Positions 10,588 to 47,140 of a stretch of 64,000 nucleotides of DNA are shown in pieces. The notes under the pieces are model-generated. The model saw only the letters and a list, made by a program, of their open reading frames with translations, searched no databases and was not told the origin of the DNA. Position 1 is the first letter of the stretch; every line of letters starts with the position of its first letter. The stretch comes from Lingula anatina (taxonomy: Eukaryota > Animalia > Brachiopoda), in NCBI GenBank assembly GCA_051362555.1, contig CM120644.1, forward strand, positions 11,926,567-11,990,566, in the 5' to 3' direction. Both the position numbers and the translations under genes were made by a program.

Positions 10588-11706
10588 TTAACACAGAGAC
10601 CGGGCACTCTCGCCACATCCACTTCTTACGGGAATTCTTTCCGTCTGTTCTTTAGACGCTATAAAACCCATGCACTCTTGCAAATTTATAGCACTGTCAA
10701 TGCTTACTTTAGTCTTGGTGCTGGACATCTTCCTCGATCGTCGTCTGTTTTTCCTAGTCTTGCACGTGTTAGAAATAGTCAAACGAAACGATTTTCGAAA
10801 CTCTTTTGAGGCGAAGTTGTAAATGATGGGATTTAGACACGAGTTCGAGTACGCTAGAAATAAAGCACTTATATTAAGAATGCCCATGACCTTTTGGTCC
10901 CCGCCACCGCCGCATGATATATAGACGAACAGGAAATTGAAAGGCCCCCAACAGACGACAAAAACTCCCGCCACTGCAATAGCAAGTGCTGTCACCTTGC
11001 GACTATATCCATGAACCAGCAAAAGTTGTTCCTCCGTCGAAAACTTACACTTCTTGACTTCTATTACGATTACGACTGTCGCTATGACAACAATTGCCAC
11101 CGGAAGTAGAAAGTCGACTCCAACCATCAAACTTAACAGAAGCACGAATTCCAATTCAGTGGCAACCTCGATGCTGCAGCCGATGCGTTCATTGTAATAC
11201 ACGGCAACCGGGGAGTTGACGGCCAGTATGGTTACCCAAATCACCACGGTGGTTGACAAAGAATGGCGCGTGGTAAGGAACTGAGACGCCCGAATCGGTG
11301 ACACAACAGCACGGCAACGGAAAACGCATATTGCCGCCAGCGAGTATGCACCAACAGTCGTGCACACGAACGTGGTGTATTTCAGCATTTTGCAAGCAAG
11401 GTTACCAAGTTCCAACTCGTACTTCGTAATGACGTAAGCCGCTTCGAGCGGGATGCAAAACACAAGGAACAAAAGGTCCGACACGGCTAAGTTCAAAAAC
11501 AACATATTTGCGCATGTTCGCATGTACTTGTTGGCCAAAATAACATAGATCACCATGGCGTTTCCAGCGACACCTATGAGCAAAACGAAGGCATATAAAA
11601 CTGGAATTAAGATGGAATTCGTCTCAGCCAGAACGAGAAAAAACGCGGGGGCGGTTCTGTTCAGCGCGGTCGTTTCGTCTGAAGTGCTGTTTCCATCGTC
11701 ATCCAT
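10588..11706 (-). CDS. Rhodopsin-class neuropeptide-type GPCR, allatostatin-A/galanin receptor-like, 372 aa, intronless CDS
   Basis: Seven hydrophobic segments with GN (TM1), LAVSD (TM2), Cys at the start of TM3 and in ECL2, CWGP (TM6), NSCLNPIIYNF (TM7) and helix 8 SKEFRKSF. N-terminal N-glycosylation sequons NST and NRT. The family call rests on motif resemblance only. Confidence 0.93.
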   Translation of the reverse strand: MDDDGNSTSDETTALNRTAPAFFLVLAETNSILIPVLYAFVLLIGVAGNAMVIYVILANKYMRTCANMLFLNLAVSDLLFLVFCIPLEAAYVITKYELELGNLACKMLKYTTFVCTTVGAYSLAAICVFRCRAVVSPIRASQFLTTRHSLSTTVVIWVTILAVNSPVAVYYNERIGCSIEVATELEFVLLLSLMVGVDFLLPVAIVVIATVVIVIEVKKCKFSTEEQLLLVHGYSRKVTALAIAVAGVFVVCWGPFNFLFVYISCGGGGDQKVMGILNISALFLAYSNSCLNPIIYNFASKEFRKSFRLTISNTCKTRKNRRRSRKMSSTKTKVSIDSAINLQECMGFIASKEQTERIPVRSGCGESARSLC

Positions 11707-13043
11707 GATGCCTGTCTCGGGTCAATAGCCAGTTAAGGTGTGTCACTTGTAATTATGTTTTTTGTTTCAATGGAATAACATGGACTTTGATCGTCAAAGG
11801 CGGATGATCAGTTTGATTAAGCATATCACTTGCAACCAGTTTAAAAAGCGAAGTATCCCTGCTATTGAATATGGTGGAATAGTTCACGTGTGTGAAAGTC
11901 GTCTGATCACCTAATCCAAGCAGACGTAAACCGATATCCGATTTTTATGTTTCGAATGTCATTTCGAAGCCCCAGACTGGAATCATTGCTGCAGCATCAG
12001 GCCTCATCTTCTTTGATCGACTATTTGCTACCTTTTCGAAAGCTGAATCAAAAACTAAAATTGATCTTTTTCTTTTTGTGCCGATTGATTCTCTGACAGT
12101 TCACGCTTTAGGTAGAAGACGTCCAAGCAGTCTTAATGGCAAAAATTCCACCACTCAACGATATATATCTCTATAACGTACGCCTCTGTGTTTACCCGTC
12201 TATGAAATGAATCAAACGACCTAGAAATTGAAAAAAAGGAAAATGTGGTACTGCGCCACTCTACTGTTTGAGCATTGATTGGTATTCTCGCATGCGGGCA
12301 CCGCCAGAAAAAAACGTACGAGTATGTCGCTTTCTCTGTTATATGAGTAATCAGTAAGGAAAACCAATTATTGTAACATCTTATGTTTAAATACTCTTCA
12401 GTTTTCCACATTTCTTCATTAATGGCAATGGAAGATTCTAAGTGCTTACTTTTCTCTGCGATGCAATTCCACCCTTATTACTAACGTCCAATAAGCTACA
12501 TCATTTATATAGATGGCGCTGGCTTCGGGCAACGTGGGAACATCCTTGTGAACCTGTGAAAAAAAAATGAAGAGTTAATGAATTGCAATGTTTTAGATGA
12601 TACGTTTCCCACACACATTTGCAGTAGTGTCATGTTCAATCGATTGTTTTATTGATTCAATTGATCTTGCTACAGTTTTATACTTTCTCTTTACACCCTT
12701 CTCTCTCTCTCTCTCTCTCCAGATAATTTCCTCGAGCTCTGTCAGCCAACCATTATTAAGTCTGATGGAAAGTTGACTTCTGCTTTTATTAGATCGCAAT
12801 TACATTCCACTGTTCTACCGCAAATTAGCTAACTGAAAAACACGAGGTAATTTTTGCAAATGCAGCTTCTCAACCCATTCTATGTGTCGTTACCTAGCTG
12901 GCACTGTAATTTTAAGATGAAGGTTAGTCGAAACTTTATTTCATTTACGTAGATACACTGTACCAGTATATCCGTGACCTGATTCATACTTTTACATGCA
13001 TTGATTTTATACTAGTTCTTACATGAAAGGGTTTCTCCCCTGT

Positions 13044-23048: not shown

Positions 23049-23593
23049 AGGCCTACCCTACCACCATACTCGACACCGAATGATCCCGAATTTACCGGTA
23101 GATCGGACCACACTACCCGTTTTCAAGGTGTGTGTCAGTACGTATTTCACAGTATCATACCTCGGAGTAAATTTTGAGATGATATGCACTACTTTCCAAC
23201 CCCGCTCAGAATAGTCGCTATCACATCGCGTACTAGGCAAGAGCGGTGTCGCGTCTAAGGGTGCTTTCCCAGAGATTTAGATCGATCTAAAGATTAAGTT
23301 TTAGATCGACCTAACTCCCTGGGGGTTCACGCTAAATTGCAGTCAGCCGAGCGGGCACCATAGTTAATTATCCCCTGACAGCTTTTAGTAGGCGGGACAA
23401 ACGCCTAAGCTGGCCAAGCTGACAGTAATCTAGTGAGACTCCCCACAGGGATAGATCGATCTAAAAATCTATGGAAATGGGGTGTAATACTTCCAAGAGC
23501 GTACTGACGCACACCTTGAAAACTAGTAGTATGGTCCGATCTACTGGTGAATTCAGGATCGTTCGCTGCCGAGTCTGGTAGTTGGGTAGGCCT
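23049..23593. mobile_element. Long-TIR (about 100 bp) element family B carrying a nested family A MITE
   Basis: AGGCCTACCC...GTAGATCGGACCACACTAC..GTTTTCAAGGTGTGTGTCAGTACG is mirrored at about 23500-23593. Confidence 0.8.
23259..23484. mobile_element. MITE family A copy nested in family B
   Basis: TAA|GGGTGCTTTCCC ... GGAAATGGGGTG|TAA. The uninterrupted site is visible in the family B copy at about 14552-14580. Confidence 0.9.
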
Positions 23594-23687
23594 GAACATT
23601 GCTTATAGAAGCAACTGTTATTAAGAACTAGAAATCAAACGTGGGTGGAGCTTTCTTTCTTTAATGCATTTTTTTTTCAGAGACTAG

Positions 23688-23902
23688 CACCCCATTTCCA
23701 TAGATTAGATCGACCTACTTTAGATCGACCTAACTCCCTGGGGGTTCACGCTAAATAGCTGTCAGCCGGGCGGACACGAAAGTTAATTACCCTCTTACAG
23801 CTTGTAGTAGGCGGGACGGACATTTAAGTCGGATTATCTGAAAGTAATCTAGTGAGACTCCCCGCGGGGATAGATCGATCTAAAATCTATGGGAATAGAG
23901 CC
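23688..23902. mobile_element. MITE family A copy
   Basis: TAG|CACCCCATTTCC ... GGGAATAGAGCC|TAT. Same orientation as 23259-23484. Confidence 0.9.
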
Positions 23903-26342: not shown

Positions 26343-27659
26343 GAATGTGGTATTTTGAAGTATGAGGTACACGCTTCCGTGTGTCTCATATCCGCCTTTT
26401 CCGACATCTGTCTAAGTCAATTAACAGAAAAGTTCTCACGAAAGAATAGAAATATTGATTCACAGTGAACAAAATGAAGTCAGAGAAGAATTTCATTAGC
26501 TGTGTTATGTTATAAGAATGATGTATTTTTTCTTCAGTCAACATCTCAATATTAGCTGCTGACTGAAGAAAAAATGACATTCTTTGAACGAAATCAAGGA
26601 GTTATAACCCCTTGACGAAATGAAGCGCGGACCTTCATTCCGACGTCAACGATGGAGGAGAACACATTCCAAATTTTAGGCACAACTAACACAATGAATT
26701 GAAGAAACCAAGCATCACATCACCGGAAGTGGAGCTTTCACTTGACAAAAAGTTGTCTATCGGATATGACATTTAAAAAAAATTAGCGTTTGTATTCTTT
26801 AATCAATTCATTTCATTTCGTTTATCTATTTAACAATTTCTTTTTTTATTCCTTTAAAACTCAGTATCATCTTCCTCGCTTCTCGTGTATATACTCTATA
26901 CTAAGATCTAATATATCCGTTTATTAGATCTTAGCTCTATATCAATGGAGGGCCCTGATACATGGTGTATATGTATAAAGGTTTAATAACCACAGCACCT
27001 AAATTTAGCCTACAGAACTATAATTCGATGAAAAGTTAATTTATAAAAACCACATTGCTATAGAAGTTGAAAATTATAAATAGTCTCTGGGGGTTGATCA
27101 GTCAAACCATGTTTTCATTTTTTCGGTCGTTTCTTGTCAAAGTAAATGTAAAGATTGGGTTTGAAGCCATGGTTTCCTGATATCAAATGGCATAGGCCTA
27201 CAATGCGCGTTGGCCGTTAACATTGCGAAAAAATTATGGAATTTCTAGAAATTTCAGTACCAAGGTTTTTCCATCCAACCCTTGTTTTTGACTCGAAATT
27301 TTCTCATTTCCAACGTCACCAGAGAAATTCAGTGGCTATCTCTATTATGATAGTGCCTCAAAAATTAGAAACTCAGAAACTTCTTTATGGATAGTAATAC
27401 TGATAACGGTTTTGGATTTGGTATACGGAGAAAAAGGACAAATATCCAGGAATATTGAAATCTTTAAAGGTGTAACACTCATCATTATGTGGCTTTCAAA
27501 CTGTTAATGGAAGCACTGTATCGTAAACCGCAAATTCTCCCATGTTAGACAAAATACTTCATGCTGGAAAGATCCAACACTAGCCACATCCCAACACAAC
27601 CCGACAACATTTCTACAAACTGAAATTCTCTCATATAACTTGCACGGGATAAGTGTCAC

Positions 27660-27833
27660 ATCCACCGGTGACGCGGCGCTTCTTAGCGGAACCGGGACGG
27701 GTGCAGCATTGACCCCTGGATGACGTCATTCAAATTTGCAAGTTGACCCACTGCGACTCTAAACAAGAACAACTGACTGGAGAGAGACGCTAGTGCTGCG
27801 ACTGCGACTGCCAGAATCACCTTGATAATCATC
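27660..27833 (+). promoter_or_regulatory. Probable promoter/5'-UTR of the Ly6 gene with a full CRE
   Basis: CpG-rich patch immediately before the ATG. TGACGTCA at 27721-27728 is flanked by two TTGACCC motifs (27710, 27744). Confidence 0.5.
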
Positions 27834-27882
27834 ATGAAATCTCTCGTATTTGCCCTCTCATTCCTCGGCTTCCTGTCTGTGG
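27834..27882 (+). CDS. Three-finger (Ly6/uPAR, quiver-like) GPI-anchored protein, exon 1 (signal peptide)
   Basis: ATCATG start, MKSLVFALSFLGFLSV(G), donor G|gtaagt in phase 1. This is the typical Ly6 signal-peptide exon. Confidence 0.85.
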
Positions 27883-28667
27883 GTAAGTTGACTGATCTCT
27901 GGGTATTTTTTAGACGCAGCTAAGGACGCTCTGTAGCGAAGAAGGACTGAGATAGGTCCACTTGAACGTTGAAATCTACAAGCAAAATGTACGTAATTTT
28001 CGTGACCTCATTTCCATCCCATGTGCCTGTGTAATGAAATCAACAGGTTGGTTTGAAAGAGTATGGGGTTAGATAAGTTCAATGTGCCACCTGGGCGTCG
28101 TAACTTTCACAACACATGAGTTTTATATTCTAGATTTAATATAGTCACAACCAATATAAACTAGTTCTAGTCTGTTACGATAGCGAGTAAGTCCTCGTGA
28201 TAATGTGGCTTTATTTCTGATGATGGACCTCGAAAGGAAAAGATGACTGATGTAGTAAGTTTTTGTGTATTTCACCGTCAAAATATCATGGATTTAAATC
28301 ACAGGAAGAAGTGCTCGAGACATCGTTTAAGTATTCAGCTTGCATTTTAGTAACCACGACAGAGAATGAACCTAGTAAAGTTTCTATTGTAAGTGCTGAG
28401 ACCCTTGTGTTTGTTTTTAATAAACTAGTCGGGCCTCTCGTTGTATGGTACACGTTGGTTAACAGTCCACGTAGCATGCTAAAGAGAGTTCAAGGTCTTG
28501 TTTCACAAGAGAAATCTCAGCTCGAAAATTGATCTAATATCTAAGACAAAATTAAGTCTACTTCACTTCATAACAAAGCCTTAGTTGTCTTATGTGATGT
28601 AACCATAGGCCAGAAATATTAACGGCTTTCTTGTTATAAAACAAGCACACTATTTTAACTGGACTAC

Positions 28668-28965
28668 CGGTGTGACTGAAATGCGCAATACAGCGCAACA
28701 CAGTGCAATACACTTCAAAAATCAAATCCAGTTGCAATTACACAAAAGAAATGACCATTCCCAGCAAAGTAGGGTGATATAAAAACAACCTATATTACTG
28801 GGTAAGTAATATTGTTGATATAACTTAACAAATCAGCAAGACTTTAATATTGCCCAGTTGGCAGCCAAGTTGGTGAGTGGCTCTTCTTGGATATATTACT
28901 GGCCAAGAAGAGCTACTCGCCAACATGGCGGTTGCAGTGTATTGCGCATTTCAGTCACACCCCTG
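28668..28965. mobile_element. Non-autonomous DNA element (possibly hAT-like) in Ly6 intron 1
   Basis: TIR GGTGTGACTGAAATGCGCAATACA / TGTATTGCGCATTTCAGTCACACC. GGACTACC is repeated at both flanks. Confidence 0.75.
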
Positions 28966-31900
28966 GACTACCACTGCTTGAGCTTGGATCAAAGAAAACT
29001 TTAATTTTTTTGTGTAAAAATTTATATTTATTTAGACCGAAGTTATGCTGCATATGCCATTGTAATGCTGAAAATATATTATAAACCGATGTAGCAATAT
29101 ATTTAAATAGACTACCATTGCAGCCTTGCTTAATATATGAGATATATATATCTAAATGACCACTGACTGAGAAGTCTTATTTGCAACTCCCGTTTGTGGA
29201 TATTAAAAACGCAGTCCATTCACAATTCGTGGATACAGTGAAAGTTAGTAAAGACAACATTGATGTCTGCACACCCCCATTAAACAGCATTCAGTTATCA
29301 CTGAGGCCTATGACTACAAACCAACTCTATTCATAACTAACCCTGTTTATTTATCAAACTTGCGTTATCATTGTCCACTTGATTTTGGTTTATTGCAGCC
29401 CATAAATTTCTTTTTCGCCTGTATAACTTCTAATGAAATGGCTCAGTATTTTTATTTTAACCGGAATACGACAAAAACACTGGACCAAAAAACTGTCCGT
29501 GAGAGTTAAACCAAATTCAACTTAACTCCATGTTGTGTTTGCAAGTATCTTAACTATTCGTATCCTTATCAAAGTGGAGCGACTCTCAACTTTTGGCTTG
29601 GCGACGCTACTCATATTGAACAACCGATAAACGAAACCCTTTCCCATTTTGCTTGTCCATTTGAACGTGCTGTTGGGAGACAAACATGAGACTATTCCCA
29701 TTGTCTGTGACAGTCTGGGCCCGCTCAAGCGGTTAAAAATTCTGACTGATTGTAATGGCAATAGTTCTCCAACTGGAGTGCACTTTTTATACAGAAGCAG
29801 CAGTATGCGTGTTGACACGTAACGCTTGGGGTCTCCCCAAACAATATAAACTGACCAGAATGTTACATCACAAAGTCTAGCCCTATATTTTCAAGTGAGA
29901 AATGACCGCTGGGGTTTAGAGTGTGAAGTTAATTGTATGTAATTAAGTTCAATTGTTCACCATGTCTACCTACCTGCGCTGTATAATGTTATTCCAGGCG
30001 GGGTACTGGTGACGTGAAAGTTTATTACCTGTTCTTTGTAACAGGTGTGTAAAAATGTTTGCTTAAAGACCGCAAAAGAAAGAACCTATTAAAGGCGTTG
30101 TTTAATGTAAATAGTCTTGACAGCTTGATACAGAAAGCTGAAGGTGAAATTTAATTCGACTCGTTTAAGACGCAATGTAATGTTTGGAAAATTTGGAAGA
30201 GACACGTTTTCTAGACACGATGAACACTTCTGACATTTGAACGCAGAAATATATCGCACTATTTTCAAGTCATTTTACCGAATGATTTATGAAGAGATGC
30301 GCACGGTGTTCATGTGGTCTGTCACGCCAGTGTCTGGAATACTTTATGCAGTTTATCATTTATGCTGTGCAGAAACCTCTCTTATATCATTTATTTACCT
30401 TTGTGTATTATTTGACTTTTTTCGAAAGCACTGTTTGAGAGAGAGAGAGAGAGAGGGGGGGAGAGGGAGAGAGAAAGGGGGGTGGGGGGTCCCATCACTT
30501 TAGACAATTTCTACAGAGCGTGCTTTCTTATTTAATTTTTGAACCCATTCCCACACATTTCTCCTGGCCACGCACTGATATATGTCACCACAGATAGCAG
30601 AGAGCCGGAGGCAAGGAAACACGCGATAGTCGCAGTATTTATTATCTTCTGTGTCAACAACATGGCAGGTACCCGATACTATACCATGTGTACTGAGCTA
30701 AATATTATCTGTCCTGTTAACATATGTAAATGGCCATGTAGGACGAGGAAATTAGAACATTTAGCGTTCATTGTGGGGGCTATTTTAACCCAATACAAAA
30801 CGGGTATGGGTCATAGAATAAGATGCACTTTAAATATCGATGTTTTATTTGTCTGAATTTCCTTCTGATCTAAGAAAAATATTTTGAGTTAAAAAAAAAA
30901 ACAGGTTAAGGGATATTGAACAGATATCAATATTGAAATAATTTTCGCAACTGGGTCTTTTTAGTCCCCCGTCCTTTTGTCATCATAAGTAAGTGACATT
31001 GACGAGAGGCACATTCATGTTTTCTATTTCTTTTGCCTTGAGATTCAAGTGTGATTTTGTTTATATAAGCTGGGGCTTCGGTTGGATACAAAACGTCTGT
31101 GAAATATTGTTTACATACTACATGTAGTATAAATGTTGGTTTCAGCAAATGAAGCAATCGCTCTCACTCGTGATAAACACCATGAATACATCAACGCGGG
31201 TTCCCTCTTTTTCGTCGTCATGTTTTTGTCTTTTATGTATTTATTTAAACGATTATTAACAAGATTTTTATGTCGTCAATATTTAAACGCGGAAAGGGTT
31301 TAATTGATAAATACTACAACTAGCACTCCTACAAGGTTACGCGGTTTAAGAAATTCCACAGTCTCGTCTTACTATTCTATCTTCAGTCCTTTGCCCTTCC
31401 CTGTCGAGAAACAAAAATGTAAAGGTCCTGATTATTTAGCATAAATTTGGGGACAAACGGATGTGCTAAAGAAAGAGATGAAGGTACTGACACAACACGC
31501 GTATAGCATCAAGATTCAACGTACTAGTTCTAGGAAAATTGCCTATACGCAGACAAAGGCAGGGGTTTGTTGGACTTACGTCGTATTCATCTCGAGGACA
31601 CAGTCAAACATTGGAGTACCCGGATAGAGATACAATGTTTTGAGTATGTTCAAAAGTAATTGCCTACGCTGCTTATATCTTCATTTTAATTAGCTGGAAA
31701 CAAGGATATTTCAAACGCTCAGGATTGTGCGTATAATCCGTGTCACAAACGATACTTCTTTATGCTAGGAAACAGATCCTTAAAAACGAACTGCGAAAAT
31801 GATTACCTCTGCGTGTTCACAATGCGATAGTTGCGACAAACGTCGCATTTCTATTAGAATGGGAAAACTGAGGTGTACCCTAGTGCTATGGTATGCCAGT

Positions 31901-31995
31901 AAATACTAGAATACATAAAGACAAAAAATACCCCTATATATATACTATATCTCACCTGTGAAATACATAATGATATCAATATCTTTGCAATACAG

Positions 31996-32142
31996 GGACC
32001 GCCATCAAATGCTACGTCTGCAACAACGGCGACCCTAACTGCGGTGAGACATTGGCGGCTACAGCAGACGACCCTGCTTACGTCCAAGACTGCCCCAACA
32101 CCAACGGCTGCATGAAGATCGACGCCACCCACATTGGAACTG
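31996..32142 (+). CDS. Ly6 protein exon 2 (constant N-terminal half of the LU domain, Cys1-5)
   Basis: Acceptor tttgcaatacag and donor G|gtacgt; phase 1-1, 147 nt. Translates (G)TAIKCYVCNNGDPNCGETLAATADDPAYVQDCPNTNGCMKIDATHIGT, with the IKCYxC and CMK motifs. Confidence 0.92.
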
Positions 32143-33543
32143 GTACGTGCTGACTATTTGAACCGGTGCTATAACTTACTTGTTGGGGGCCTGTTTGGCA
32201 TTGGTTGTGGTTAACATTAAATATTACGCTTTGCAGATGTTTTAAAATGTGATAATTTTATAGACTTTGCCAGTAAAATAGATACAATAGAAATGATATT
32301 CACAATTTGGATGCTTAAATGGGTTTTGGTTAATTTTGTACGGTGTTTATCTGACGGTCATAATTTCAGATATTTTTCTTTAATTGTTTATTTGTTAAAT
32401 GACATTTATTTGTTAAAATGACATTTACTTTGACATTGTATGTTTAGATAGATTTTTTTTCTCATAAGTTTTATTCTAACTTTATATAATTAAGTTTTGC
32501 TTCATGCTTTGCTAACTAACATACTAACCTACACTTCATGCCCTAACCACGATGCTAATAACTATGTTTATGTACGTACTCTTTAGCGTAGTGCCTGCTT
32601 CCCATTGGCTACATTTAGCATGATATTACTCCGCAAAATGCTGCTCTTTGCCTAAAGACTCCTCAGTGAATATTCTCACCTTTTTCACTGCCCTGCTGTA
32701 ACCTTGGAGATAAACACCATGTACTCGGTTCTAAACGCCATCGCCTCTTTTTGTCACTTTCCTAGAGTCTTCCTGCAGTCTTTTCTAGTTTGAAAAACGT
32801 TATTAGTGTAGTTTGACCTTGACCTGTGATTGACTTTCACGCAGCCCTTAACCCCATTGAGAGCTCGAAGTCTTCAAGTTGGAAGTAAGTTTTAACCCGA
32901 GAGGTTTTCACACGTGTGCTGTTTATCGTTTGCTGTTTGACTACGTGAACTTGCGTGTTTTCACTGTGTGCTCACATTCGTGTCTTAAAAATGCTGGTGC
33001 TGCCACCTAACGGAAATGCCGTCAAATGCGGTTTTGATCTATTAAGGTACCTTTTTGTCAAACACTCCTTAGAACAAAAGCTAAAAATAACATGAATTGT
33101 TTAAAAATAATAATAAATTGAATATCATATTAACTTGCATTAAAAAGAAAACAAACCAGCTTACTCTTTGCGTTTGACATTTACGTAGATTTTGAATCTG
33201 TCTTCTTGTTTGAAGTGCTGTTCGTATTTGCAGTGAGCTTAATAGCAACATAAATTAAAAGCAAATGTGTTTGCGTATTATGATAGCAAATGAAAACAAA
33301 CCGTTATTCTGTTTAGCTACTTGTACAATTCTTCTTCGGAAAATGTGGATTAAAGGAAATCATCACAAATATAAATCTTTCGAACTGAGGATATCTGGGT
33401 CATTTAGTACAAACCAGAAACGAATTAAATGAGAATCAAGATATTCTGAGTCAAGCAAATTAAAAAACGGTTGGTTTTTGTTGTTGCGTATAGTGAGGCG
33501 TGTACCGGAAGTAGTAGAACTCACGTGACCGTGTCGTTGTTAG

Positions 33544-33764
33544 ATAAGAAGACCCAAGATGCCAAGAGGGTGGTCATCCGGAAGTGCTTTTACACAGTCA
33601 CTCCGCAGACGGACACTTGCAAGGTCTACACTCAGGGAAATCTACGGGGAATCCACTGCATGTGTACCGGAGCCCTCTGCAACTCCGGAAGTGGCGTCAA
33701 CACAAACCTCGTAGTGCTGGCTTTCTCAGTTTTAGTTGCTGCTATTTTTAGTCGTCTTATCTGA
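33544..33764 (+). CDS. Ly6 protein alternative terminal exon 3a (138-aa isoform)
   Basis: Acceptor ttgttag, phase 1. (D)KKTQDAKRVVIRKCFYTVTPQTDTCKVYTQGNLRGIHCMCTGALCNSGSGVNTNLVVLAFSVLVAAIFSRLI* has 5 Cys, the CN motif and a GPI signal. An in-frame alternative AG precedes 33559. AATAAA at 34802-34807. Confidence 0.9.
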
Positions 33765-34031
33765 CTTTTGTCACTGTATTTCGGCCAACTGGTTTTAAGA
33801 GGGCGATATTGTTATGTTTTTTCCTTCACAGGAATTGTTCATCAAACACAGATTGAAAAAAATACAGCATTGAATAGATGTCACAATTTTATCTCTATGC
33901 TCCTACACATAGTTTTGATGGGAGTTGTAAGCACCGCAGTATATCATTGGCACAATGAGTCTTAAAGAATATGTATCATATACATGACACATTCAACATC
34001 CACGATATCTTCTGTATAAATGCGAAACTGA

Positions 34032-34279
34032 GGGACCATTCCCACAGATATTTGGATCGATCTATCTCCCTGGGGGTCTCACTAAATTGCTGTCATCTTT
34101 TTTCACGGCTGAAATGTCTGTCACGCCTAGAAAAACTGTTAAGGGATAATTATCTTTACCCCTTAGCTGATTTGATAGGTGTGGCAGATATTAAGCCGGT
34201 TAGTTCATAACAATTTAGTGAGACTCCCCAGGGAGTTAGATCGATCCAGATGGATCGATCTATGTATGGTAACCCAGTC
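34032..34279. mobile_element. MITE family A variant in the putative 3'-UTR of exon 3a
   Basis: GGGACCATTCCCACAGA...GATCGATCTATCTCCCTGGGGGTCTCACTAAATTG is mirrored by CAATTTAGTGAGACTCCCAGGGAGTTAGATCGATC. Confidence 0.8.
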
Positions 34280-35798
34280 AGAGGCTGGTAACTACCTTGA
34301 AAAAGAACTAGGCCTACCCAACGTTGGCGTCACTTCTGTCTGGTGCTGAGCTGTGGATTTGTGAGCTAATTAATGACAAGGTTTATGGTATACTATACGC
34401 GTGTACAATGTCCCAAATTCTTATGTATTTGTCAAAATACTTTGTAAAGCCAGTTATTACATCTTAAATTCAGAGCGTTAAAAAGATAAAACCGAAGTTA
34501 TATCAGAAAGACATGATGGTCTTAATGATTTGTTTAGAACATTAGTTTTTAAATTAAGACTTCCAGCCATGCAGGAAAAGGTCGAGCAATTATTTCTGAC
34601 TAGGAGAAGATTGCCTTTTTTCTCGTTAAAAATTAGGTTTGGCGCAAAAAAAATCCGTATGGTGGACTTTTAACAATAATTGAGTCACAGCGTGGTAGCT
34701 CGTTTTTTTGTTTTTTTTACAACCTGTCAGAACACATGTTGTTGTTGGCGTATATTTTCACATTTTTGTGATGGACCCCACTTTTATACACCAAGTACTA
34801 AAATAAATTATTTGGTTGTTTTATCTTTGTTCCTTCAAATTTAATCTTGAATGGAAAGGTCGGGGTGTGGAGGATAAGTTTTACCACTGCCTAATTTTAC
34901 AGCGGTATCGTTTATGTGCAATATGACATGCGCGTTGTGGTGTTGGACGACACGTGGTGTTTTAAATGTAATAAGAGCATGCACTGCAGGGTTTGTTTGC
35001 ACGTTCGGCATGGGCATGATTTTATTCCCCGGCGTAAATTCTGGAATTCTGAATGATGTTAAAAATGAAACCAATGACGCATTGTATTTGCATGATGGGC
35101 ATGACTTTAGACCGAATAATCCCGGCGTGATCGCATTCGCATTTGATTTGAAGGCCTTATTCCCAACCCCTCCGCTTACACATACAACTGTACACCCAAA
35201 CACAAAAATGGTCCGAATAATCCCAACAAGAAAAAAATTCTTTGCCATAGATATCATTCATGACAGTGCTTTGTTATATTATAATACTCTGCTACTTATT
35301 TACGACAAAGCTTATTAGCATATCGACACCATTATAAGGCGATATCCTGTACCAAAGTCAATCTTATTTTCTGAACTTCTGTGCCTTACTGTCCTTTGTA
35401 TTGTAACAACCTTACCCTAGGGCTGAAGTGGGAGGGGGACACGGATTTGCATGCATGACAAAAAGCATTGGCAGATGCAGGGGAGGAGAGTGGGCCAGGG
35501 GATGGGGAAGTTCCCAAAATTGGGTTCTCGCTCCTTTTAAAGCCCCGGTCCAAACTTAATAGTTTTGGAGAGCTACTGTATTTTATGAAGTACATTCATA
35601 ATTATATTCACCATACATTTACATGAGATTTTAGGCTTTCACGAGCATTTATCACTATCTTGAGATGAAGACATGCCATCGGATTGCATGCAAACAGCAT
35701 TCACGAACAAGTGAATGTTGAAGTCAATATAAGTCCAAAAATGTATATTGAAAAAAAAAATGCAATTCATTCTCAGCACGTGTACATTTATCCTGTAG

Positions 35799-36004
35799 GC
35801 AAACGTGTTATTCAGAGAAAATGTTTCTATACCACGACCGCACAGAACGAGAAATGCGACAACTACCAGCAAGGCGACCTCAAAGGATCCCAGTGCTATT
35901 GTAAAAGCGGCGATTTATGCAACACCGGAAGTCACGTGGCCCTCAACACTCTCCTCCTTATGGCGGCTGCGGTGGCAGGAATGATTTTGAAAAGGGTTTT
36001 GTAG
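35799..36004 (+). CDS. Ly6 protein alternative terminal exon 3b (133-aa isoform)
   Basis: Acceptor tttatcctgtag, phase 1. (G)KRVIQRKCFYTTTAQNEKCDNYQQGDLKGSQCYCKSGDLCNTGSHVALNTLLLMAAAVAGMILKRVL*. AATAAA at 36510-36520. Confidence 0.9.
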
Positions 36005-37509
36005 ACTTCACGATGGATTCTTACTTTATAATGTCACTATTTGGACGCTGTACGAAAAGAAACGTGTAGCTTCTAAGAACAGTTGTGAAATAGAAAAAAA
36101 GGAAAATTGAAATAATGAAGTATTATATTTTAAAAGACAGTGCAATCACACTATGTGCGATAACTGGATTCATTGACGTATTGTTTCGATCAAGGAATAT
36201 TTAGTGAAAAATTCTCAGAGAGTTTTTCTCGTTTTCAGTATTAACTTTATCTATCTAATGTATGGTCAAAGACCACGATCAGGCCATTTTTGGTCACAAT
36301 GTGTTGTGTAGTATTTATGACTTTAAATTCAAATGTGAAACATTCAAATTGTATTAAGCGCGGCCAATTTATGACCATGTGGAGTTTTTTAAAGTTATTA
36401 ATAGTTGACAATATTTATAATTACCATTACACATATTTTAACAATCAGAAAGCGCATGCAGAATTTACATCGATAACACTACTTGTGGAAAACAAACATA
36501 GGCATTTCAAATAAAATAAACATATACCAACGCTTAATTTAGAACAGAAATACACATTGATTTTCTGCTTTTCTAGAATAATGTGTTATGATTGTTTTAT
36601 TTAAGAAACAAACGTATTGTTTCTTCAAGATGAAGGACAAATTAGGAGCTGGAAAAATATTTTATTGACAAGAAGGGTCTATTATTGTCAGGGGGCATTC
36701 TGGTAAATTGTTGTTACCTCCCTTCCAAAATAAGAATCTAAAAATTTAAAAATTGAGGCAAACTCTTTGAAACTCTTGCCATATTTCACTCTAGACTGTG
36801 ATGTGAGCCGATTATTCAATAACGAAATCAAGAAGGTTCTCGCTCTATCTGATATCACGTTAGGCCAAACTAAAATTTAATGCCCAGAGATACCATATCG
36901 TCCTCAGTGGAACAATGCGCACTCTGGCACTCTGGCGAGGATAAAAGACGGTAGAAGTGTCGGGAAAGATAATACCATCACGACATTGCAGCCTCGGGAT
37001 CTACGGTAATTATGCATGTGTTCTCGTGTATTTTGAAATAAAAAGGAAAACCTTTTACTCGTAGAACATAATCTACTCGTGTGTATATGTGAACTTAATG
37101 TGGTTGTGGATAAACTAATAGGAATGGCACGAAGGGACGGTAAACAGACGACTGTTGAAGGTGTGAGACGCCGTCGAGAAACCTTCAGAATGTTCTGCAA
37201 TAGTTCAACAGTGGCAGAGGGAAGGATAATACCATAACAGTAACCACAGTTATACAACTTAAATACGTCTTTCTGCTTTAGCCTTCTAGAGGTTTCTGTG
37301 GCTTTAAAGCTTAACGAAGTATTCGTAGTCGGCGCAAACATTGGCCTTTTCCATCAAAATAGGCTTTTTTGACGCAAGCTGGTTTTTGGTTCAGGCTTTA
37401 CTTCTATTAAAATTTAAAAAAAACTGGTAAAAACTTTACTTTAAGACGCATATTCCTGTAATAAAAGGCATTTAATGCTCTGTCTGTAGTTGAAACTTTA
37501 TTTTCATAG

Positions 37510-37706
37510 GACACCGTATGATTATCAGAAAGTGCCTCTATACTACGACTGAACAAAACGAGAAGTGCGCTGTTTATCAACAGAACCAACTGAAGGGTCA
37601 ACATTGTTACTGCAAGGACAAGGACCTATGTAACGCCGGAAGTGGCATGTCCTTCAACTTCTTCATCACTATGGCACTAGTGTTCTTTTCGAGATGGCTC
37701 CTCTAA
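37510..37706 (+). CDS. Ly6 protein alternative terminal exon 3c (130-aa isoform)
   Basis: Acceptor ttattttcatag, phase 1. (G)HRMIIRKCLYTTTEQNEKCAVYQQNQLKGQHCYCKDKDLCNAGSGMSFNFFITMALVFFSRWLL*. AATAAA at 38194-38199. Confidence 0.9.
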
Positions 37707-39322
37707 ATAATGATGGCGTTAAAAGATTATTAGTCTTGTACAATGACATTCTGCAGCAGTGAGAAAAAGAACATTTACTGACAGACGCTGCTATGCAGTG
37801 AAAACCTTTAAAGCTAAAAGTGGATGTGAACACTAGATGCAGATTTTACCCTGTTAGAGGAGGAGTCTGTAACGAGGCTGGTGTCCTGTATTAACAATTT
37901 AATTGTCTTATTTTCGGACATGTGCGACCACAGTGATTGGAAACGGAACGTCTCTCTGTTGTTTTAAACTGATAGAAATTGCCTGTATGGCTAGACTACA
38001 GATGAAGTACGAAAGTAGATTGTGTGGGTGTTTTTTTCGCACGATTTTGTTTGTATCTAGATACATATACTTGTATTTTGAAATTCTTTTTTATGTAGTT
38101 AGTTTTTACTGTATTACAAATTTGAAGCACTGCCTCTAAATTATGAGCATAAACGCTTGAGGATAAAAAAACTCGTTTTTTCGTTGATAAACCAATAAAA
38201 ATGCTTTTTATTATGCTCAGCACACATCTGATCAGATAAATGAGTTTTATAATTGACATTTAGACGCCCAAATAAACATTTCTCACAAAAAATGCAACTT
38301 TTTACTTTGATAGTAGATCTCGCCGCTGTGTTTATAGGAATATATCTAACAACTTAGTAACCAAACACAACAAGAATTTGCCAGGTGGGCCATTATAATG
38401 GCCTCCACAAAAGCAATCATAAAACATCTGGAAAGCCGATATCTCTCAACTGAAGCAGTCTCCTGGTGAACTGATCAAATAATAAAATCTCAAAACACTG
38501 TTAGTGGATTTAGCTACAAGGCGATGAAATGTGCTACGGAATTTTTGTATGTGGACGTTTCTCATCAATAAGAAGCGATGCGTTTGTCGTTTTTTTTTTA
38601 ATTGTAATTTTATGGAATATTTGCAAACGTGCAAGACACCCCGCCCCTCTTTCCACGCTGGAAGTTTTATACACCCTACAATATAATCCCTCCCACCCTA
38701 AACCATCAATATGTTTTATTCCTTTTGACCCATTGGCCTTTTCACCAACAGGAAGACGGTCAGTGGTGTTATTCCTTCTCCACAATGTAGTGCAGAAACT
38801 ATGTGTCCATCTTTTTTTCTAAGGTATCTTCTTCTTTTAGGAAGGCCTGTTCTAACGCTACTACGCTCCTAACATAGAATAACTGGTTTGATTTTACCTT
38901 TGATCGGCCGTCTAACTAGATTTGCTAAGTGGAAACAGCTATTGCTGAGTTTATTGGAACTGAGCTTAGATAGTTACGAACTGATGTTATTATTATATTT
39001 GGGTAATTTAAACGGGTCGATAGGCTTACATACTCCTCACCGTGCGTCTGTTAGTAGGCTAGTATGCCCGGCGTTGATCACCACCCCGTAATCATATTTG
39101 AAAGTCTCATGCAGAGCAGAACCCGACGTCTCAACGCAACATAACTTCAGTAGAATCACCCCATCTGGCGAATGACGGCGAGCAAATAGGGGGGCTTATC
39201 CTTTCTTTCCTCGTTCGAAAGTGCAGATTCCCGTAGCCTTCCCGTAGCGTAGACCTAACATTAATTTAACAAAAATAATGTAGCTGTCGGACACGTTTTA
39301 ACTATTGACTACCAATTTTTAG

Positions 39323-39522
39323 GTCACACGATCGTACAGAGGAAATGCTTGTACACCACCACAATGCAAAATGAGAAATGTAACGTCTACCAACAAGGAA
39401 ATCTGAAGGGTTACCAGTGTTACTGTAAGGGGGACCTATGTAATTCTGGAAGTCACATGACAACTAGCGTCGTCCTGATGACCATCATGTGCGGGATTAC
39501 TATATTGCTGCGATTGTTTTAA
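39323..39522 (+). CDS. Ly6 protein alternative terminal exon 3d (131-aa isoform; missed by the ORF track)
   Basis: Acceptor caatttttag, phase 1. (G)HTIVQRKCLYTTTMQNEKCNVYQQGNLKGYQCYCKGDLCNSGSHMTTSVVLMTIMCGITILLRLF*. AATAAA at 40627-40632 and a cluster at about 40969-41000. Confidence 0.9.
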
Positions 39523-40772
39523 TGCGGTTTTAATTTCATTTTTAGTTTGAAACAGAAATTTGTTTTTTATTTTCATGTCCTTTTTGAAACACACAACATT
39601 AACTTTGGCAACTGCACAAAGTTGAGTGGAGGTAACTATTGCCACTATTTGGATATGATACTCCTCGATTTTGACAAAAGTATTTCACTACATAAAATGG
39701 TGTGATGTTACAAGTTTTAATAAGCTAGTCAGTTATGGCTTACATTTGTTATTTTTCCTCTGATAGGCTACGACCTGTCATCCAAATCTTGCTCAATGCT
39801 CGAAGGATTAATAGAGTTATTTCAACATTTTAATGATTTTATGGGATCAACTATGCAACGGCAAGTATATCGTTTATATTGACACATATTTTTAGACATT
39901 TGCGCAATAATTAATGTGAACCTTTTAAGGATGGCGGCTTATTTCAGAATGAAGAATGTATCATCCCTCTCTGATATTTCCGTTATCATTTATAAATGCA
40001 AATATCCGCCCAAGGGGATTATGTTATATTGACAACAAACATTTAAAAGCACAGTGGTGTTTGTATAGCTTTTTGTGCGTAAACATATGGGAATAACTAG
40101 AAGTTAATTTTTACTTACATCAAATGATATATTGATGAATAGATACATATTTACTCCAGGTAGCTAGTTAAGCCTACGACAACTTTATAACTTAACCTTA
40201 ATGATTTGCACCTGATGTATTTTATTGATATATGCTTAGAGGGGCTTCACAAAACCCATGTCTTCCATTCGTGAATAAGCAAGGATTGTAATCTGTTTAT
40301 CGTCAACCCATTTCAACATTTCAGATAGGTATAGAGACACTATCAAATCAGCTGTTCTTGTTTTCTTTTGTGCGCCCTAATGATCACTAATCTATGCAAG
40401 GTTTGAAGGATAGGATTTTATACCTATTTTTAAGTTTTAAGATATACACATACAACGTAATAGTTTTTGCACGAAATAATGTTCAATTGTATACACGGTA
40501 GTGTAGCGGCAGGAGAAAGGTGTTTAGTGTTTTATTCAAGTGACAGTTTTAGAGACGCATATTTAGGGAAATATTTTAACGAAAATCGCAACAATCTTTG
40601 TCTTCCAGTTGTTGTACATAGATTTGAATAAACATTCAATGCTAATGAATTATATTTCAATATTCAAGATTTAGTGTTGTCACTTAAAATGGATATCAAC
40701 GGAATTCCTTATTTCAATTGGTTTCTCACAATGTCAGGCCTGTATCCAACATAAACAATTGAGTGCGGGCTC

Positions 40773-41674: not shown

Positions 41675-44600
41675 CTAAACCCATGTCACCCAAAGTTGAT
41701 TTCGTTTCTCTGGAACCTCTTCGGCTTCAAAACATTTCCCAGAGCATGACGGCACTTTTCGTTCGTTTTCGACAGTTGAACCGTAATCAGGAGGTTTTTG
41801 ATCATTTTCCACGTGTCCATTTGATTTCTTTGGTGTCATCTCGTCACTGGTAGCATCGACACCTGAAGAGGGTACCAAGTCAGGAGCAGACGATTTATGT
41901 ACCCGAGCGTTATTAATAATTTCAGGAATCTCTTGTTCTTTTGGATTCCTCATAACGATAGAGAGAACTACCGGAAGCACAATTAAACCATGCCCCGCCC
42001 CCAGGACGACAACCAATAAAATCATTTTAAAGAAGGTGCGCATTAGATAAGCGTTGGATGCGCTCAAAACAATCACTGCAAGAATCGTCGATATTGCACC
42101 TTGGGTAATTGGAAGGCCAAGAAAATACATGGCTTTCCTTGTTTTTAATTTCCTACTTCCCTCCGCACTGACAAAAACATATGCCATATGTGCCGAAAAA
42201 TCTATAGAGAAACCGATGCATATGATCAAATTTATCATTGTTGTGTAATCCAAACGAACGTCCCATAGAGTTACGTAACCAATGACGCCCACCTCGATGG
42301 AAGCCACGGACAGTGCAACCCAGAAGGAGCTGATTGGATTAGGGATAAATAATAAGGAGACCAATAACATCGCTCCCCACGCGATTCCCAGATTCATGAG
42401 CGTGTTTGGAATGACGGAGAGATACTGGTCGTAGTAAATGAAAGCTGGATGATAAACGGTGACAGACAAGTTGCTTTTTTCGGCTATATTCCTGGCAAGT
42501 TCCATCATCCTCCTTTCTCTGATGGAAGAGTTGATATTTATGGCCTGTATGAAGAAACGTGTGGCGATGATGTCCGTACCTTTTTTGGCATCGAATACTA
42601 CATCTTGTTTGTAACGTTCTTCCATGGAAAAATACCTATTTTTCAACAAATTTGTGAAGGCACCGCTGCTAGTGTTTTTGGTAAAATTTGGAGCCAATTT
42701 TAAAAATCCCCACAGCCAACATTCAGAATTTTTCTCATCAAAAAAGTCAGAATGGCTCAGAAAGTCATCAAACAGGCTACGATAATCTCTTTGAATGGCC
42801 GGTTCCCAGTAGTTCATTTTCTCCTCAATGATGATTTGTATCTTTGGCCCAAAATGACTGAAGAATTCTTCTTCGGACTCGTAGAACACAACCGTTTGAG
42901 AATCGTCTGCCGCGAATGTTTTGAACTCTATTCCTTCCTTTACTTTGGTACATCCCCATATTGCTCCAGTCAAATATGCGCCATAGCACAGTAAAACTAT
43001 GATTTTCGTAGGAGTGAAAGATATCAGTTTAGCGTAATAGTCACGGAAGAACATCATGAGGAAATGTGGATTGAGGTCGTCTCTTTCACGAACTACCTTT
43101 GGTGTTCCGCTTGCGCAGAAGAACCAGTAAGCTTTATTTTGCTTTCCTGGAATGGAGAAACACAGGAAATTTAAACTGGGTGCTGAAAACTTTTCAATTT
43201 CATTGTTGGAATCAAGAGGTCTAATTTACATGTAATCAGCTACGGTAAACATAGTTAAACTAAGCATTCCCCCAAAATATATGCAAACTTTTTCTACTTT
43301 TCCCAATATAATTTAACATAATATTCCAGGAAAACTTTTTTATTAAAATTATTTCTAGCCTTGATCACAAGAATAGTTGCCACAGTTTGCTCTGGTTGGG
43401 GCATTATCAAGAGCACGAAAGCTACGGCTGTATGCGCGATTTGACACAATAACATCTGTCATACATATATTTTCATATATCAAACAAACACACGTTGAGC
43501 AGTTTCATTAGTTACGTGTTTTTTAATAAGCAAATTAAGTTTCAATTTGTCAATAACTAAAGAAAATTTAACTGAGATTTACAAGCAAATATTTCGTCTC
43601 CCAACAGGAAAACTTCTACTTCATAACTATAATACCTATAGGTGGCAATACCTATCACAGCCCTCATTTCCGTGACAGTTACTTTTTCTATAGCTATTTA
43701 CAAATGAAACTTTATTTGTTTATGGAACAAACACAAATTCCTTACCTGTCGTTCCTCTTGGCTTTACTTTGTTAAAAGTCAGGCAGTGTCTGCTGGCATT
43801 CTCACGATGCCCAGTGATGACCATGCACGCGCCAAAGAAGGTCAGTTGGTAGAGGTATGTGAAAAGAACTGCGACTCCTGATAAAAAAAGATAATCTGAG
43901 TCTCTTCAGGTTCTTGTAGGTTTTTTTTTTAATCTAAGAAAACATACATCAAGGGTATAGCCTATAGGCACTGTCGTTAATTGAAGTTAACGTAAATATT
44001 TCTTAATGATAAAAATTGGCGGACTTTAAAATTGAATGTGACTTTGCTAAAATGAACCATAAACTCTTTGTCCTTGGTTTCACTTTTATTTGCAATGCAA
44101 CGCAATCATTACGGTAAATATAAAGCTAACGACATGCCAATGTCATTTACCCGAGTACAAACAGAAAACTTTCACCGAAGGAAAATCGGTCGAAGCGCCA
44201 ATGGCAAAAGAAATAACGTCAGTTACGGTTGTTATGGTGATGGAAATGGCGGCATCTGCGTACGTCAGTCCAAGACGCTCCTCCACGGATTCCCTTGGGT
44301 CCGTCTGCCGCCAGGTGGCTATCATGATATACATATTGTCCACTCCAGTCCCTACGTGAAACAATGTGATTCTTTGAGAAGGACCTCAACCTAGTAGGTG
44401 TTAACGCCACTTATTTAAGATACTCTATGACATTTATTGCATTCTGGACTTTTTTTAAAGACCTAGATCTAGAAGAAATTTATTCAGTTAAAAGTCGAAC
44501 GAAACATAGGTTTTTGAATTTTCTGTAAATCATGTCATAAGGACTTTATACTATTACATCTAACAAACAACTTATGTAGAAGTGTAATAAAACAGAAGAA

Positions 44601-46633
44601 TTGCAATGCATTGCGCAAGCAATTTAAAATTAAGGAAGAGCGTCGTCATTTGGAGGAGGAGGGAGGGGCAGAGAGAGACTTGCGTCTAAAGATACGCATC
44701 GTGTTTTTTATTAACTTACCCAGCACGAGAAAGGGCATGGAGGCCACAATATCGTTGAAAGGCACGCCGATATACATGAACAGGCCAAAGGTGGACAGTA
44801 CTGCCAGACCCGCACACATCACACCCAGCAGCCCCAGCCATGGTTTGCTACGAACCCAGTCCTGAAAGAAGCAGACGACAAATGTATCTAAATGTAGGAA
44901 CCATGGAACAATGTTATTTCGTTGGTGTGAATTAGGCTAAGTAAATCTTGCTTTTCGCGCATACAGCGCTATTCTGGATCACTTATCGAATTGCACGCGA
45001 CATTTGACGTCATATGGGTAACACCTGACGGTAATTGACGTCATATGGGTAACACCTGACGGTAACTGACGTCATTGGGGTAATACCTGATGATAAATCG
45101 ACCACGCTGTAGGACGTGCTGTTATAGAAATTTGGAGGGGGTTCCACAGCGCTGGGAATGGGCAATGACAAATAGCGCGGTGTAACTAATGGCTGATTAA
45201 TTTCAGTGCGGAGCGTAAATGCAAGAAAAACTAATTGACTAATTTAATTAAGAGAAAATGAAAAGAAAAGAAGAAAACGAAATATAATTTGGGTTGAAAA
45301 TCTCATTTTTTAGATGGAATGTATGCGTAGCCGATCGGGGGTAGGGTCACTCTCCAGTCCCCCATTTCATTTTGTGGATTAGCCAATGTGCGTCTAATAC
45401 CAATTTTAAAAGAGCTATCCACATCACAGAGCACTGTATAGATATATTGATTATATTATTAACATTAGGATGCAAAAAACAACGATTATTGATTGTTTCG
45501 AAAGTCTTAAATAAACAACGATGCGTCTACTCATGCTTAGCGCTGTTAAAAGTGATAATGGTGGACCGACTTCCAAGGCGATGAACTAGTAATCCCCGGA
45601 TAATTTTTGCACTAAAAGCCAAGTGCCCATCGTACGCAGGAAAAATAAGAGTTTTCTCTTTTTTCTTTTTTGATACATCTTGAATCCGCCAGTGCTGCTT
45701 TTTTACCAATTGATACAAATTCGCCAATGAAAATACCTGCGTCATGCTGGAGAGCATAGAGAACGCAATCAACAGTACAATGGTGATGCGGAACAGCGGC
45801 AGTATCTGCTCTCTATTGTGCTCCAGCTCCGTCTCCAGGGTATGTGACGTAAAATAAGTTATATCGATTCTGGACAGATTCCACCAGCTAATGCCGAGCG
45901 TCAGCTGCTTCTCCCACGTTTTCCCCAGCTTCGGGTTCAGGTCTTCATTGAGGTAGTACACTAACTGAGCTGCAGCGCTCGATATTATGGAGCCGCCGGC
46001 ATCCAGCCTAATCCCTCCTAATGAGTTGCCTAAGAATAGCGGCCGCCTTTCGGTGTGGTATATTGTAGAACCGTTCGGCAGTGTCACATGGTGCGTTGCC
46101 GTGATTTGGTGAAACGGATAGGAGAGTCTTGTTCGATCGATGTTGGATGAATTGTACCCAATAGCGTAAAGAAGTGGGTTCGTTTCTACGCACTTGCCTT
46201 TCCATTTGGCACATAGGTCTTGAAATTTGTATTTCTGTTCGTCATTCCCATACACAGTGAAATTGAAAACTTGGTTGTGAACCTCCAATATCTCCTCCAA
46301 AATGCCTCGATCTAGTATGTTCGTTTTACCTTTGGGTGTTATAATAAACCTCACATAGAGGCCGGCTTCGGTGTTTCTGACTGGGTCGAAATCTTCCGTT
46401 CTGGGAAACAGTCTCCGCGCCGTGTCTCGCTCCGCCTTTGCCCTACCGTGTTCCGGCGTAAACAAATATTCCACGTCCAAAATTTGCTGGAATCTATAAA
46501 AACCCGTCCCAAGAATCCCAGTCACCAGAAGGGGGCCAAAGAACAGGAGCAGGGGGTGCCGTGCCACAAAACGACCCAGTCGCGCAAACAAGATGCTCAA
46601 CGGTTTGTCGATGCAGGTCCATTCGCAGCGCAT
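41675..46633 (-). CDS. PTCHD3: Patched-domain (patched-related, PTCHD3-like) sterol-sensing RND-type membrane protein, 5 coding exons, 947 aa
   Basis: Exons 46633-45737, 44861-44720, 44351-44151, 43877-43746 and 43146-41675. All introns are GT-AG and phases fit (total 2844 nt). Motifs: EYLFTP, DLCAKW, DWVRSKPWLG, MPFLVLG, SITITTVTD, SASNAYLMRTFFK, IGFSIDFSAH, GAGHGLIVLPVVLS. An in-frame stop lies upstream of the ATG. The symbol indicates family resemblance, not proven orthology. Confidence 0.93.
45003..45095. repeat. 31-bp tandem repeat x3, each unit with a perfect CRE, in PTCHD3-like intron 1
   Basis: Unit TGACGTCATATGGGTAACACCTGACGGTAAT; TGACGTCA at 45005, 45036 and 45067. Confidence 0.9.
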
Positions 46634-47140
46634 GTTCGCCTTCTCCCGGTGGTTCGCCCTGCCCTTTCCGCCTGGCGATGGGGTTCAGTGATGTTCAGGA
46701 ACGGTTCCTCTTGGACGACTGAACTACTGAAACGTCATGAACCGCAGAGTGGATGATGAGCCTCATAATGCAAGGGCTGGTAACGGTGAATCAATGATAC
46801 GGCAAATGGGGCTTTTGAGAAGGTGCCAGAAGGATCGACGGAGGCAGGGAGGATAGCATTACGTACACGTATAGAATTCTGCGAACTGATCTTATACTGA
46901 TCTCTTAATTAACCCCTTTTTTATTTTAAAAGAATATATGTTTCATGGACAGACTAATCAAAACCAAGTTAAAAATCCTAGCCGAACAAAAACTTTTTAC
47001 ATTTTAAATATTAAAATATTCATAAGATATGGTATTATGAATTATAAATCGATTTAAAACATCACAAAAGTTGCAAAAACCTTTTATAGCCATGATGTCA
47101 TTAATGCATTGGTCCATTTCTCCTTCCCTTCCCTCCCCTT

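Follow-up and report, generated by a model that had tools for sequence, protein, structure and literature searches.

Ly6/three-finger proteins are usually described as diversifying by duplication of whole genes. The canonical LU gene consists of three exons separated by phase-1 introns, with the second intron placed at the loop 2 tip (PMC6600238). In medaka, bouncer gives rise to Bncra and Bncrb by joining a shared first exon to one of two homologous exons, and the two isoforms are functionally different (PMC10267171). Tandem 3' cassettes were described for Drosophila PGRP-LC, pipe, and CG42235 (PMC6191721), and 77 of 236 human substitutions of tandem duplicated exons are C-terminal (PMC9741552). 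Here, a stretch of 64,000 nucleotides (nt) of Lingula anatina was analyzed (assembly GCA_051362555.1, contig CM120644.1, positions 11,926,567 to 11,990,566 of the forward strand; the whole stretch is termed the window and numbered from its first letter). It harbors a Ly6/quiver-family three-finger gene with four homologous last exons, termed 3a to 3d. Very probably, the shared exon 2 of this one gene is joined to three of these exons in proportions that vary with the sample, use of the fourth is likely rare or confined to other samples, and the products, which are predicted to carry a glycosylphosphatidylinositol (GPI) anchor, likely differ in their binding partner. The gene represents a second, RNA-supported route of diversification, in which the last exon alone was duplicated and half a domain is swapped.

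Exon layout of the Lingula gene

The gene is composed of the following exons, given as window coordinates.

27766..27882, + strand: exon 1, with the start of the 5' untranslated region (UTR) at about 27766-27785, the ATG at 27834, the putative signal-peptide coding part, and a phase-1 donor
31996..32142, + strand: exon 2, constant, encoding residues 17-65 with Cys1-5, the predicted finger I, and the predicted ascending strand of finger II
33544..33764, + strand: last exon 3a, RefSeq isoform X1, 138 amino acids, with six additional residues at the predicted tip of finger II
35799..36004, + strand: last exon 3b, coding part, RefSeq isoform X2, 133 amino acids; 3' UTR to about 36500, AATAAA at 36510
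37510..37706, + strand: last exon 3c, coding part, RefSeq isoform X4, 130 amino acids; 3' UTR to about 38100-38200, AATAAA at 38194
39323..39522, + strand: last exon 3d, coding part, RefSeq isoform X3, 131 amino acids; long 3' UTR, covered at least to the bin 40318-40750, AATAAA at 40627

The coding part of exon 1 (27834-27882) comprises 49 nt and is followed by GT; exon 2 (31996-32142) comprises 147 nt with AG upstream and GT downstream. An AG precedes each of the four homologous, phase-1 last exons (starts 33544, 35799, 37510, and 39323), and joining exon 1 and exon 2 to each of them yields open frames of 138, 133, 130, and 131 amino acids. Every product contains ten LU cysteines, five from exon 2 (residues 22, 25, 32, 49, and 55) and five from the last exon, and N follows the tenth Cys in all isoforms. 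A hydrophobic tail of 23-26 amino acids was found in all four products, with small residues after the CN and a best 15-residue hydropathy of 1.9-2.8; the products are therefore predicted to be GPI-anchored. Isoform 3d has an eleventh Cys at residue 122 within its tail (window region 39490-39500), which would be cut off together with this tail should the latter act as a GPI signal. The hydrophobic N-terminus suggests that exon 1 encodes a signal peptide. Exon coordinates, splice sites, in-frame joins, cysteine counts, and tails had been proposed in an earlier note written from the letters of this DNA, and all of them were reproduced.

The same note had reported an AATAAA downstream of each last exon. 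The motif is indeed present, its first copy lying 490-1100 nt past each stop, but with a background of 1.16 AATAAA per kilobase on the + strand of the window its frequency is not above chance, and it was discarded as evidence of 3' ends. Separate 3' UTRs are assigned to 3b, 3c, and 3d because RNA depth shows them, and not because of this motif.

No further copy of either front exon was found by tblastn of the whole window (BLOSUM62; next best E-values 0.45 and 1.2 among the matches listed) or by blastn of both exon regions against the window (next best 0.19 and 0.54); the earlier note had reported none between the last exons. The last exons, in contrast, matched one another at E-values of 1e-15 to 1e-22 in the tblastn search. 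It is extremely improbable that the locus consists of four tandem genes with overlooked front exons or is an artefact of assembly. Whole-gene duplication is the usual route of this family (PMC6600238), and Lingula contains about 101 three-finger genes (PMC13719153), but the front exons occur once in the window, and the divergence among the last exons is much too high for duplicates created by assembly.

The gene is identical with Lingula anatina LOC106180408. A search with exon 2 returned three proteins out of nine candidates, all of them 100% matches, and a cluster look-up added the fourth. RefSeq entries XP_013419841.1 to XP_013419844.1 are isoforms X1-X4 of this locus, and X1 corresponds to 3a, X2 to 3b, X3 to 3d, and X4 to 3c. 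All four isoforms thus are already RefSeq models, which were made automatically and are named 'uncharacterized'. The 3a product is identical to XP_013419841.1 and the 3c product is also identical to its model, whereas the models of 3b (X2) and 3d (X3) each deviate from the window by one residue; the variant letter of isoform X3 is also present in RNA at 39457. The RefSeq models likely derive from another haplotype or assembly. They therefore provide a second sequence source, which argues against an assembly artefact.

RNA junctions and usage of the last exons

Nine RNA runs were available by species label, and reads of four of them (X1, X2, X4, and X7) were mapped to positions 27500-40750. Conditions were set such that a junction row required ≥3 reads and a 2% setting; counts are the sum of two rows per junction. 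The junction of exon 1 with exon 2 (27882 to 31996, 4113 nt skipped) was covered by 367, 49, 331, and 390 reads in runs X1, X4, X7, and X2, respectively, and many RNA molecules start or end within 27766-27785. Reads joining exon 2 to 3b, 3c, and 3d amounted to 50, 0, and 338 in run X1, 60, 0, and 348 in run X2, 12, 13, and 17 in run X4, and 37, 178, and 111 in run X7. The skipped lengths of 3656, 5367, and 7180 nt for 3b, 3c, and 3d equal exactly those of the predicted introns, which have GT-AG ends; one exon 2 donor is paired with three acceptors.

Exonic reads corresponded to a + strand transcript in the three stranded runs. Behind each of 3b, 3c, and 3d a 3' UTR of its own was visible as a block of depth, and depth dropped after bin 36340-36781 for 3b and after bin 37666-38107 for 3c. 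A joint linking two last exons was not among the 15 of 19 junction rows listed for the four runs. Hundreds of reads link the single exon 2 to three last exons, and this refutes tandem genes for 3b-3d. The cases that the earlier note had named as fatal to its proposal, namely use of a single junction, upstream exons belonging to the individual copies, lack of transcription, and faulty assembly, are excluded for these three exons. The choice among terminal exons of one gene, as suggested there, is borne out by junction reads for 3b, 3c, and 3d, but not for 3a.

Usage of the last exons varied among the runs, with a chi-square of 530 on reads (6 degrees of freedom) and of 149 on distinct read starts (p 1e-29). 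Runs X1 and X2, which belong to one study, were concordant (p 0.52). Tissue-dependent regulation of last-exon choice is likely.

Exclusivity would require no special device because every copy has a stop and its own 3' end. The choice may be made during transcription by competition between use of a 3' splice site and cleavage/polyadenylation, set by factors of the cell type; a proximal cassette would be skipped whenever a distal acceptor or poly(A) site outcompetes its own. Docking or selector pairing received no support: the best predicted duplexes between the 460 nt past the donor and the 400-nt stretches ahead of the acceptors were equalled by 3, 13, 5, and 13 of 20 shuffles. Exon 3a (33618-33657) is predicted to pair with the intron preceding 3d (39220-39262) in a 40-nt duplex of -42 kcal/mol, with 81% complementarity over 32 nt, and this duplex beat 10 of 10 shuffles. 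It was set aside as evidence because its tile came only 7th when 157 real 400-nt tiles from the window were ranked. In as many as 5 of 16 comparisons of an exon with an intron, the real pair outdid each of the 10 shuffles, so that this shuffle control is probably too lenient.

Many fixed differences separate the RNA reads from the assembly, and in run X7 roughly half of the reads were only 90-95% alike. This divergence points to very high polymorphism or to diverged populations within one species label. In intron 1, a pair of 31-nt inverted repeats at 28669-28961 flanks a segment, probably another small repeat, to which some RNA reads map in either orientation. A perfect palindrome is located at 27721-27728, 40-60 nt upstream of the apparent transcription start; seven such sites occur in the window, three of them in one tandem repeat. 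We take this palindrome to be of the cyclic AMP-response-element type, and it may have occurred by chance.

Predicted fold, divergence, and alternative readings

All four whole isoforms scored 42.2-46.7 bits with the Pfam family PF17064 (QVR; curated cut-off 27.3 bits) over profile positions 1-86 of 86, and all four show the ten-cysteine pattern ending in CN. Single exons scored below the cut-off with 16-27 bits; exon 2 covers positions 1-41 of the 86 and the last exons cover 42/47-86. Two of the four isoforms (3a and 3d) were folded with a 24-row alignment, giving a mean predicted local distance difference test (pLDDT) score of 84.6 and 83.8, respectively. The models contain six strands in three hairpins; strands 20-23, 46-49, and 54-62 come from exon 2, and the last exon contributes three more. 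The junction (residue 65/66) lies in the turn between strand 54-62 and strand 74-81 or 68-75, that is, at the tip of finger II. In a wide fold search the LU proteins TEX101 and GPIHBP1 ranked top (Z 8.3, root mean square deviation 2.9/2.8, 75/76 residues aligned), and ranks 1-38 were all three-finger structures with Z from 8.3 to 4.6, followed by 2.7. Foldseek returned the same fold class with a best E-value of 0.008 and none below 0.001; a sequence search against solved structures gave 0 matches. A three-finger fold with the junction at the finger II tip is thus predicted, and the Lingula gene conforms to the canonical LU plan in having three exons, phase-1 introns, and its second intron at the loop 2 tip.

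According to these models, finger II would receive its descending strand from the cassette, which would also encode the complete finger III, the Cys9-10 loop, and the anchor signal. The division proposed in the earlier note, a constant finger I and ascending strand of finger II followed by a variable remainder with anchor, is consistent with both folded models. In LU domains Cys1 is bonded to Cys5 and Cys4 to Cys6; the Cys4-Cys6 bond is presumably the sole disulfide bridging exon 2 and the last exon. The constant third strand, we assume, is flanked by two variable strands in the central sheet, and the cassette would therefore rebuild most of the face that forms the usual LU binding surface. 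This surface is named in a review, which also gives the disulfides 2-3, 7-8, and 9-10 (PMC6600238). A phase-1 intron at the loop 2 tip may have permitted an old tandem duplication of the last exon with frame and fold left intact, because Cys4-Cys6 alone would cross the junction and Cys6-10 were kept in all four copies.

In Drosophila Quiver/Sleepless, binding of Shaker channels and of nicotinic receptors depends on loop 2 (PMC4735452). Half of loop 2 is variable in the Lingula gene, and by analogy its isoforms might tune a membrane partner, either an ion channel or a receptor, per tissue or stage; this is the weakest step of the proposed mechanism. Sixty-five residues of the isoforms are identical, and the differences are confined to a defined structural block, so that they offer a ready-made test of the role of fingers II and III in specificity. 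No new splicing mechanism is revealed, and the biological reach of the gene is uncertain.

Synonymous sites of the LU part are saturated across the four copies, with a proportion of synonymous differences (pS) of 0.66-1.02. Amino-acid identity in this part is 53-75% and the ratio of nonsynonymous to synonymous proportions (pN/pS) is 0.15-0.49; for 3a against the other three, pN/pS is 0.37-0.49, likewise with saturated synonymous sites. Exon 3a is the most distant copy, with its six extra residues at the junction. No similarity between copies is left in flanking DNA and 3' UTRs. Simulated neutral copies retained an open frame and five cysteines in less than 1 in 100 cases at 0.3 substitutions per site, and 12-38% were still intact at 0.05-0.1. 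The last exon was duplicated long ago, and purifying selection has retained each of the four copies, including 3a.

Several observations weigh against the reading of one gene with a regulated choice among last exons that differ in binding partner. The first concern 3a: a junction with exon 2 was not among the rows listed for the four runs, and depth was near intron level in all four runs examined. If all depth of its main bin is exonic, 3a reaches a maximal share of 1.6, 0.2, 8.1, and 0.6% in runs X1, X2, X4, and X7, respectively. The gene might thus comprise three live cassettes and a recently silenced 3a that is no longer spliced in. An inverted-end repeat (34031-34279) just past the 3a stop would fit such a loss, as would the 15-38% of simulated dead copies that look intact after 0.05-0.1 substitutions per site, and the survival of 12-38% of neutral copies given above is compatible with recent silencing. 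Yet frame, AG acceptor, five cysteines, and tail of 3a are intact, and its product is identical to RefSeq isoform X1. Moreover, 3c is likewise missing from two of the four runs but dominant in another; absence in a few samples is therefore expected for a regulated exon. We consider silencing of 3a unlikely.

The repeat at 34031-34279 is short, with long inverted ends that are 74% self-complementary over 208 nt, and resembles a miniature transposon; related pieces occur at 23049-23885. It lies directly behind the 3a stop in the presumed 3a 3' UTR and attracts many foreign RNA reads.

Further points against a regulated choice are that study, library type, and genotype vary among the runs, and that many reads are just 90-95% alike, chiefly in run X7. 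As the tissues are not stated either, unequal usage need not be tissue regulation. The isoforms are known from DNA and models and, except for 3a, from RNA, and the existence of the proteins is predicted. Furthermore, 19 of 74 columns are invariant, mostly in the LU part, many differences are conservative, and no sign of positive selection between the cassettes was seen, synonymous sites being saturated. The isoforms may therefore share their partners, and the relevant difference may lie in the 3' UTRs.

Accordingly, the four exons could be roughly interchangeable half-domains, each retained for its own 3' UTR and anchor signal, which would affect mRNA stability, localisation, or anchoring efficiency. 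The 3' UTRs are dissimilar beyond the exons and of unequal length, purifying selection acts on the LU parts whereas identity between the tails is 19-36%, and the variable halves of 3b-3d carry the same charge (+3). On the other hand, 25-47% of LU residues differ, including non-conservative finger-strand columns (K/D/A/N, I/S/Q/Y, and P/A/E/M), and the finger II tip of 3a is six residues longer. Retention for the 3' ends is possible but rather doubtful, and we prefer isoforms that differ in binding partner.

An orthologue beyond Lingula was not found; 26 matches at E ≤0.001 were obtained among 1.84 billion representatives, and the best full-length non-Lingula match had an E-value of 4e-8 and 29% identity. 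Ten of the 26 matches were looked up and included mollusc and arthropod proteins. A profile search gave 10 matches among 4255 candidates; with the four last exons as query there were 0 among 23. The same layout was not found in other species, which is weak evidence because the searches covered few eukaryote relatives. A large repeat protein, P0005, was dropped as a relative; it matches the tail region only and is labelled as a contaminant record.

As a broader proposal, which we put forward tentatively and at somewhat less than even chances, the finger II intron would make the three-finger domain a two-part module that invertebrate Ly6 genes have repeatedly exploited as a constant/variable system: behind one promoter and front half, tissue-regulated last exons would rebuild most of the binding sheet and switch the partner. 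If true, the four-cassette gene of Lingula would be the largest and the first RNA-supported case and provide a natural set of chimeras for mapping finger specificity.

Other coding sequences lie on the minus strand of the window. At 41678-46684, tail to tail with the Ly6 gene and ending about 1 kb past the 3d 3' UTR, a patched/NPC1-like sterol-sensing gene with few large exons was observed; its last open reading frame matches NPC1 and Patched (E 5e-30), and a Pfam scan assigned no family. At 10591-11721, a single-exon open reading frame of 377 codons encodes a rhodopsin-family G protein-coupled receptor (Pfam 7tm_1, E 2e-41).

Comparison with known systems

The closest entries are the RefSeq models of LOC106180408, which cover this gene and all four of its products as automatic, uncharacterised models; a published description of the architecture, usage, or selection of this locus was not found. 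A survey from 2026 arrived at 101 three-finger genes for Lingula; splicing, exons, and isoforms are not mentioned in its main text (PMC13719153). Such gene counts understate the protein repertoire. Alternative last exons that encode half a domain were not found for any Ly6 gene in the literature searched, which left out most subscription journals, and no Ly6 gene name occurs in one supplement of PMC9741552, possibly not its gene list. The earlier note thus overstated novelty, as RefSeq models, known 3' cassettes, and the two bouncer isoforms exist: splicing class, family, and models are known, whereas the half-domain constant/variable layout in a Ly6 gene was not found described and is apparently new.

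Human LYNX1 and SLURP2 were formerly read as splice isoforms of one Ly6 gene and are now regarded as separate transcription units (PMC4839075, PMC6502960); hence they provide no precedent for the Lingula layout. Quiver/Sleepless shares with the Lingula gene the Pfam family PF17064, ten cysteines, and a predicted GPI anchor, and its binding loop 2 is the site of the Lingula junction. However, this likeness is one at the level of the family profile, and the nearest family members are only 21-35% identical.

Bouncer resembles the Lingula gene as a Ly6/uPAR gene with a shared front exon and homologous alternative exons. As far as described, each of its two alternative exons encodes a whole mature LU domain and Bncrb is without a GPI signal, whereas in Lingula half of the domain is constant and four exons, all with a hydrophobic tail, provide the rest; the Lingula last exons cover profile positions 42/47-86 of 86 only and are no whole-domain exons.

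With tandem 3' cassettes the Lingula gene shares duplicated terminal exons that have their own 3' ends and are picked singly behind constant exons, although in other protein families. The constant exon 2 is spliced to three of the four homologous last exons according to junction reads, and 3b, 3c, and 3d have their own stop and 3' end and are not joined to each other among the junction rows listed. In Drosophila PGRP-LC, whole PGRP domains are swapped and competing RNA pairings are described (PMC6191721); no sign of such pairings was seen in the stretches compared near the donor and the acceptors of the Lingula gene, where half a domain is exchanged.

The exchange of half a small extracellular domain has parallels elsewhere. 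Alternative exons IIIb/IIIc of FGFR and exons 4 and 6 of Dscam1 swap half of such a domain and thereby alter binding specificity. Those are internal exons encoding immunoglobulin domains of large receptors, whereas in Lingula the last exon of a single-domain protein of about 90 residues is exchanged, together with the predicted anchor signal and the 3' UTR.

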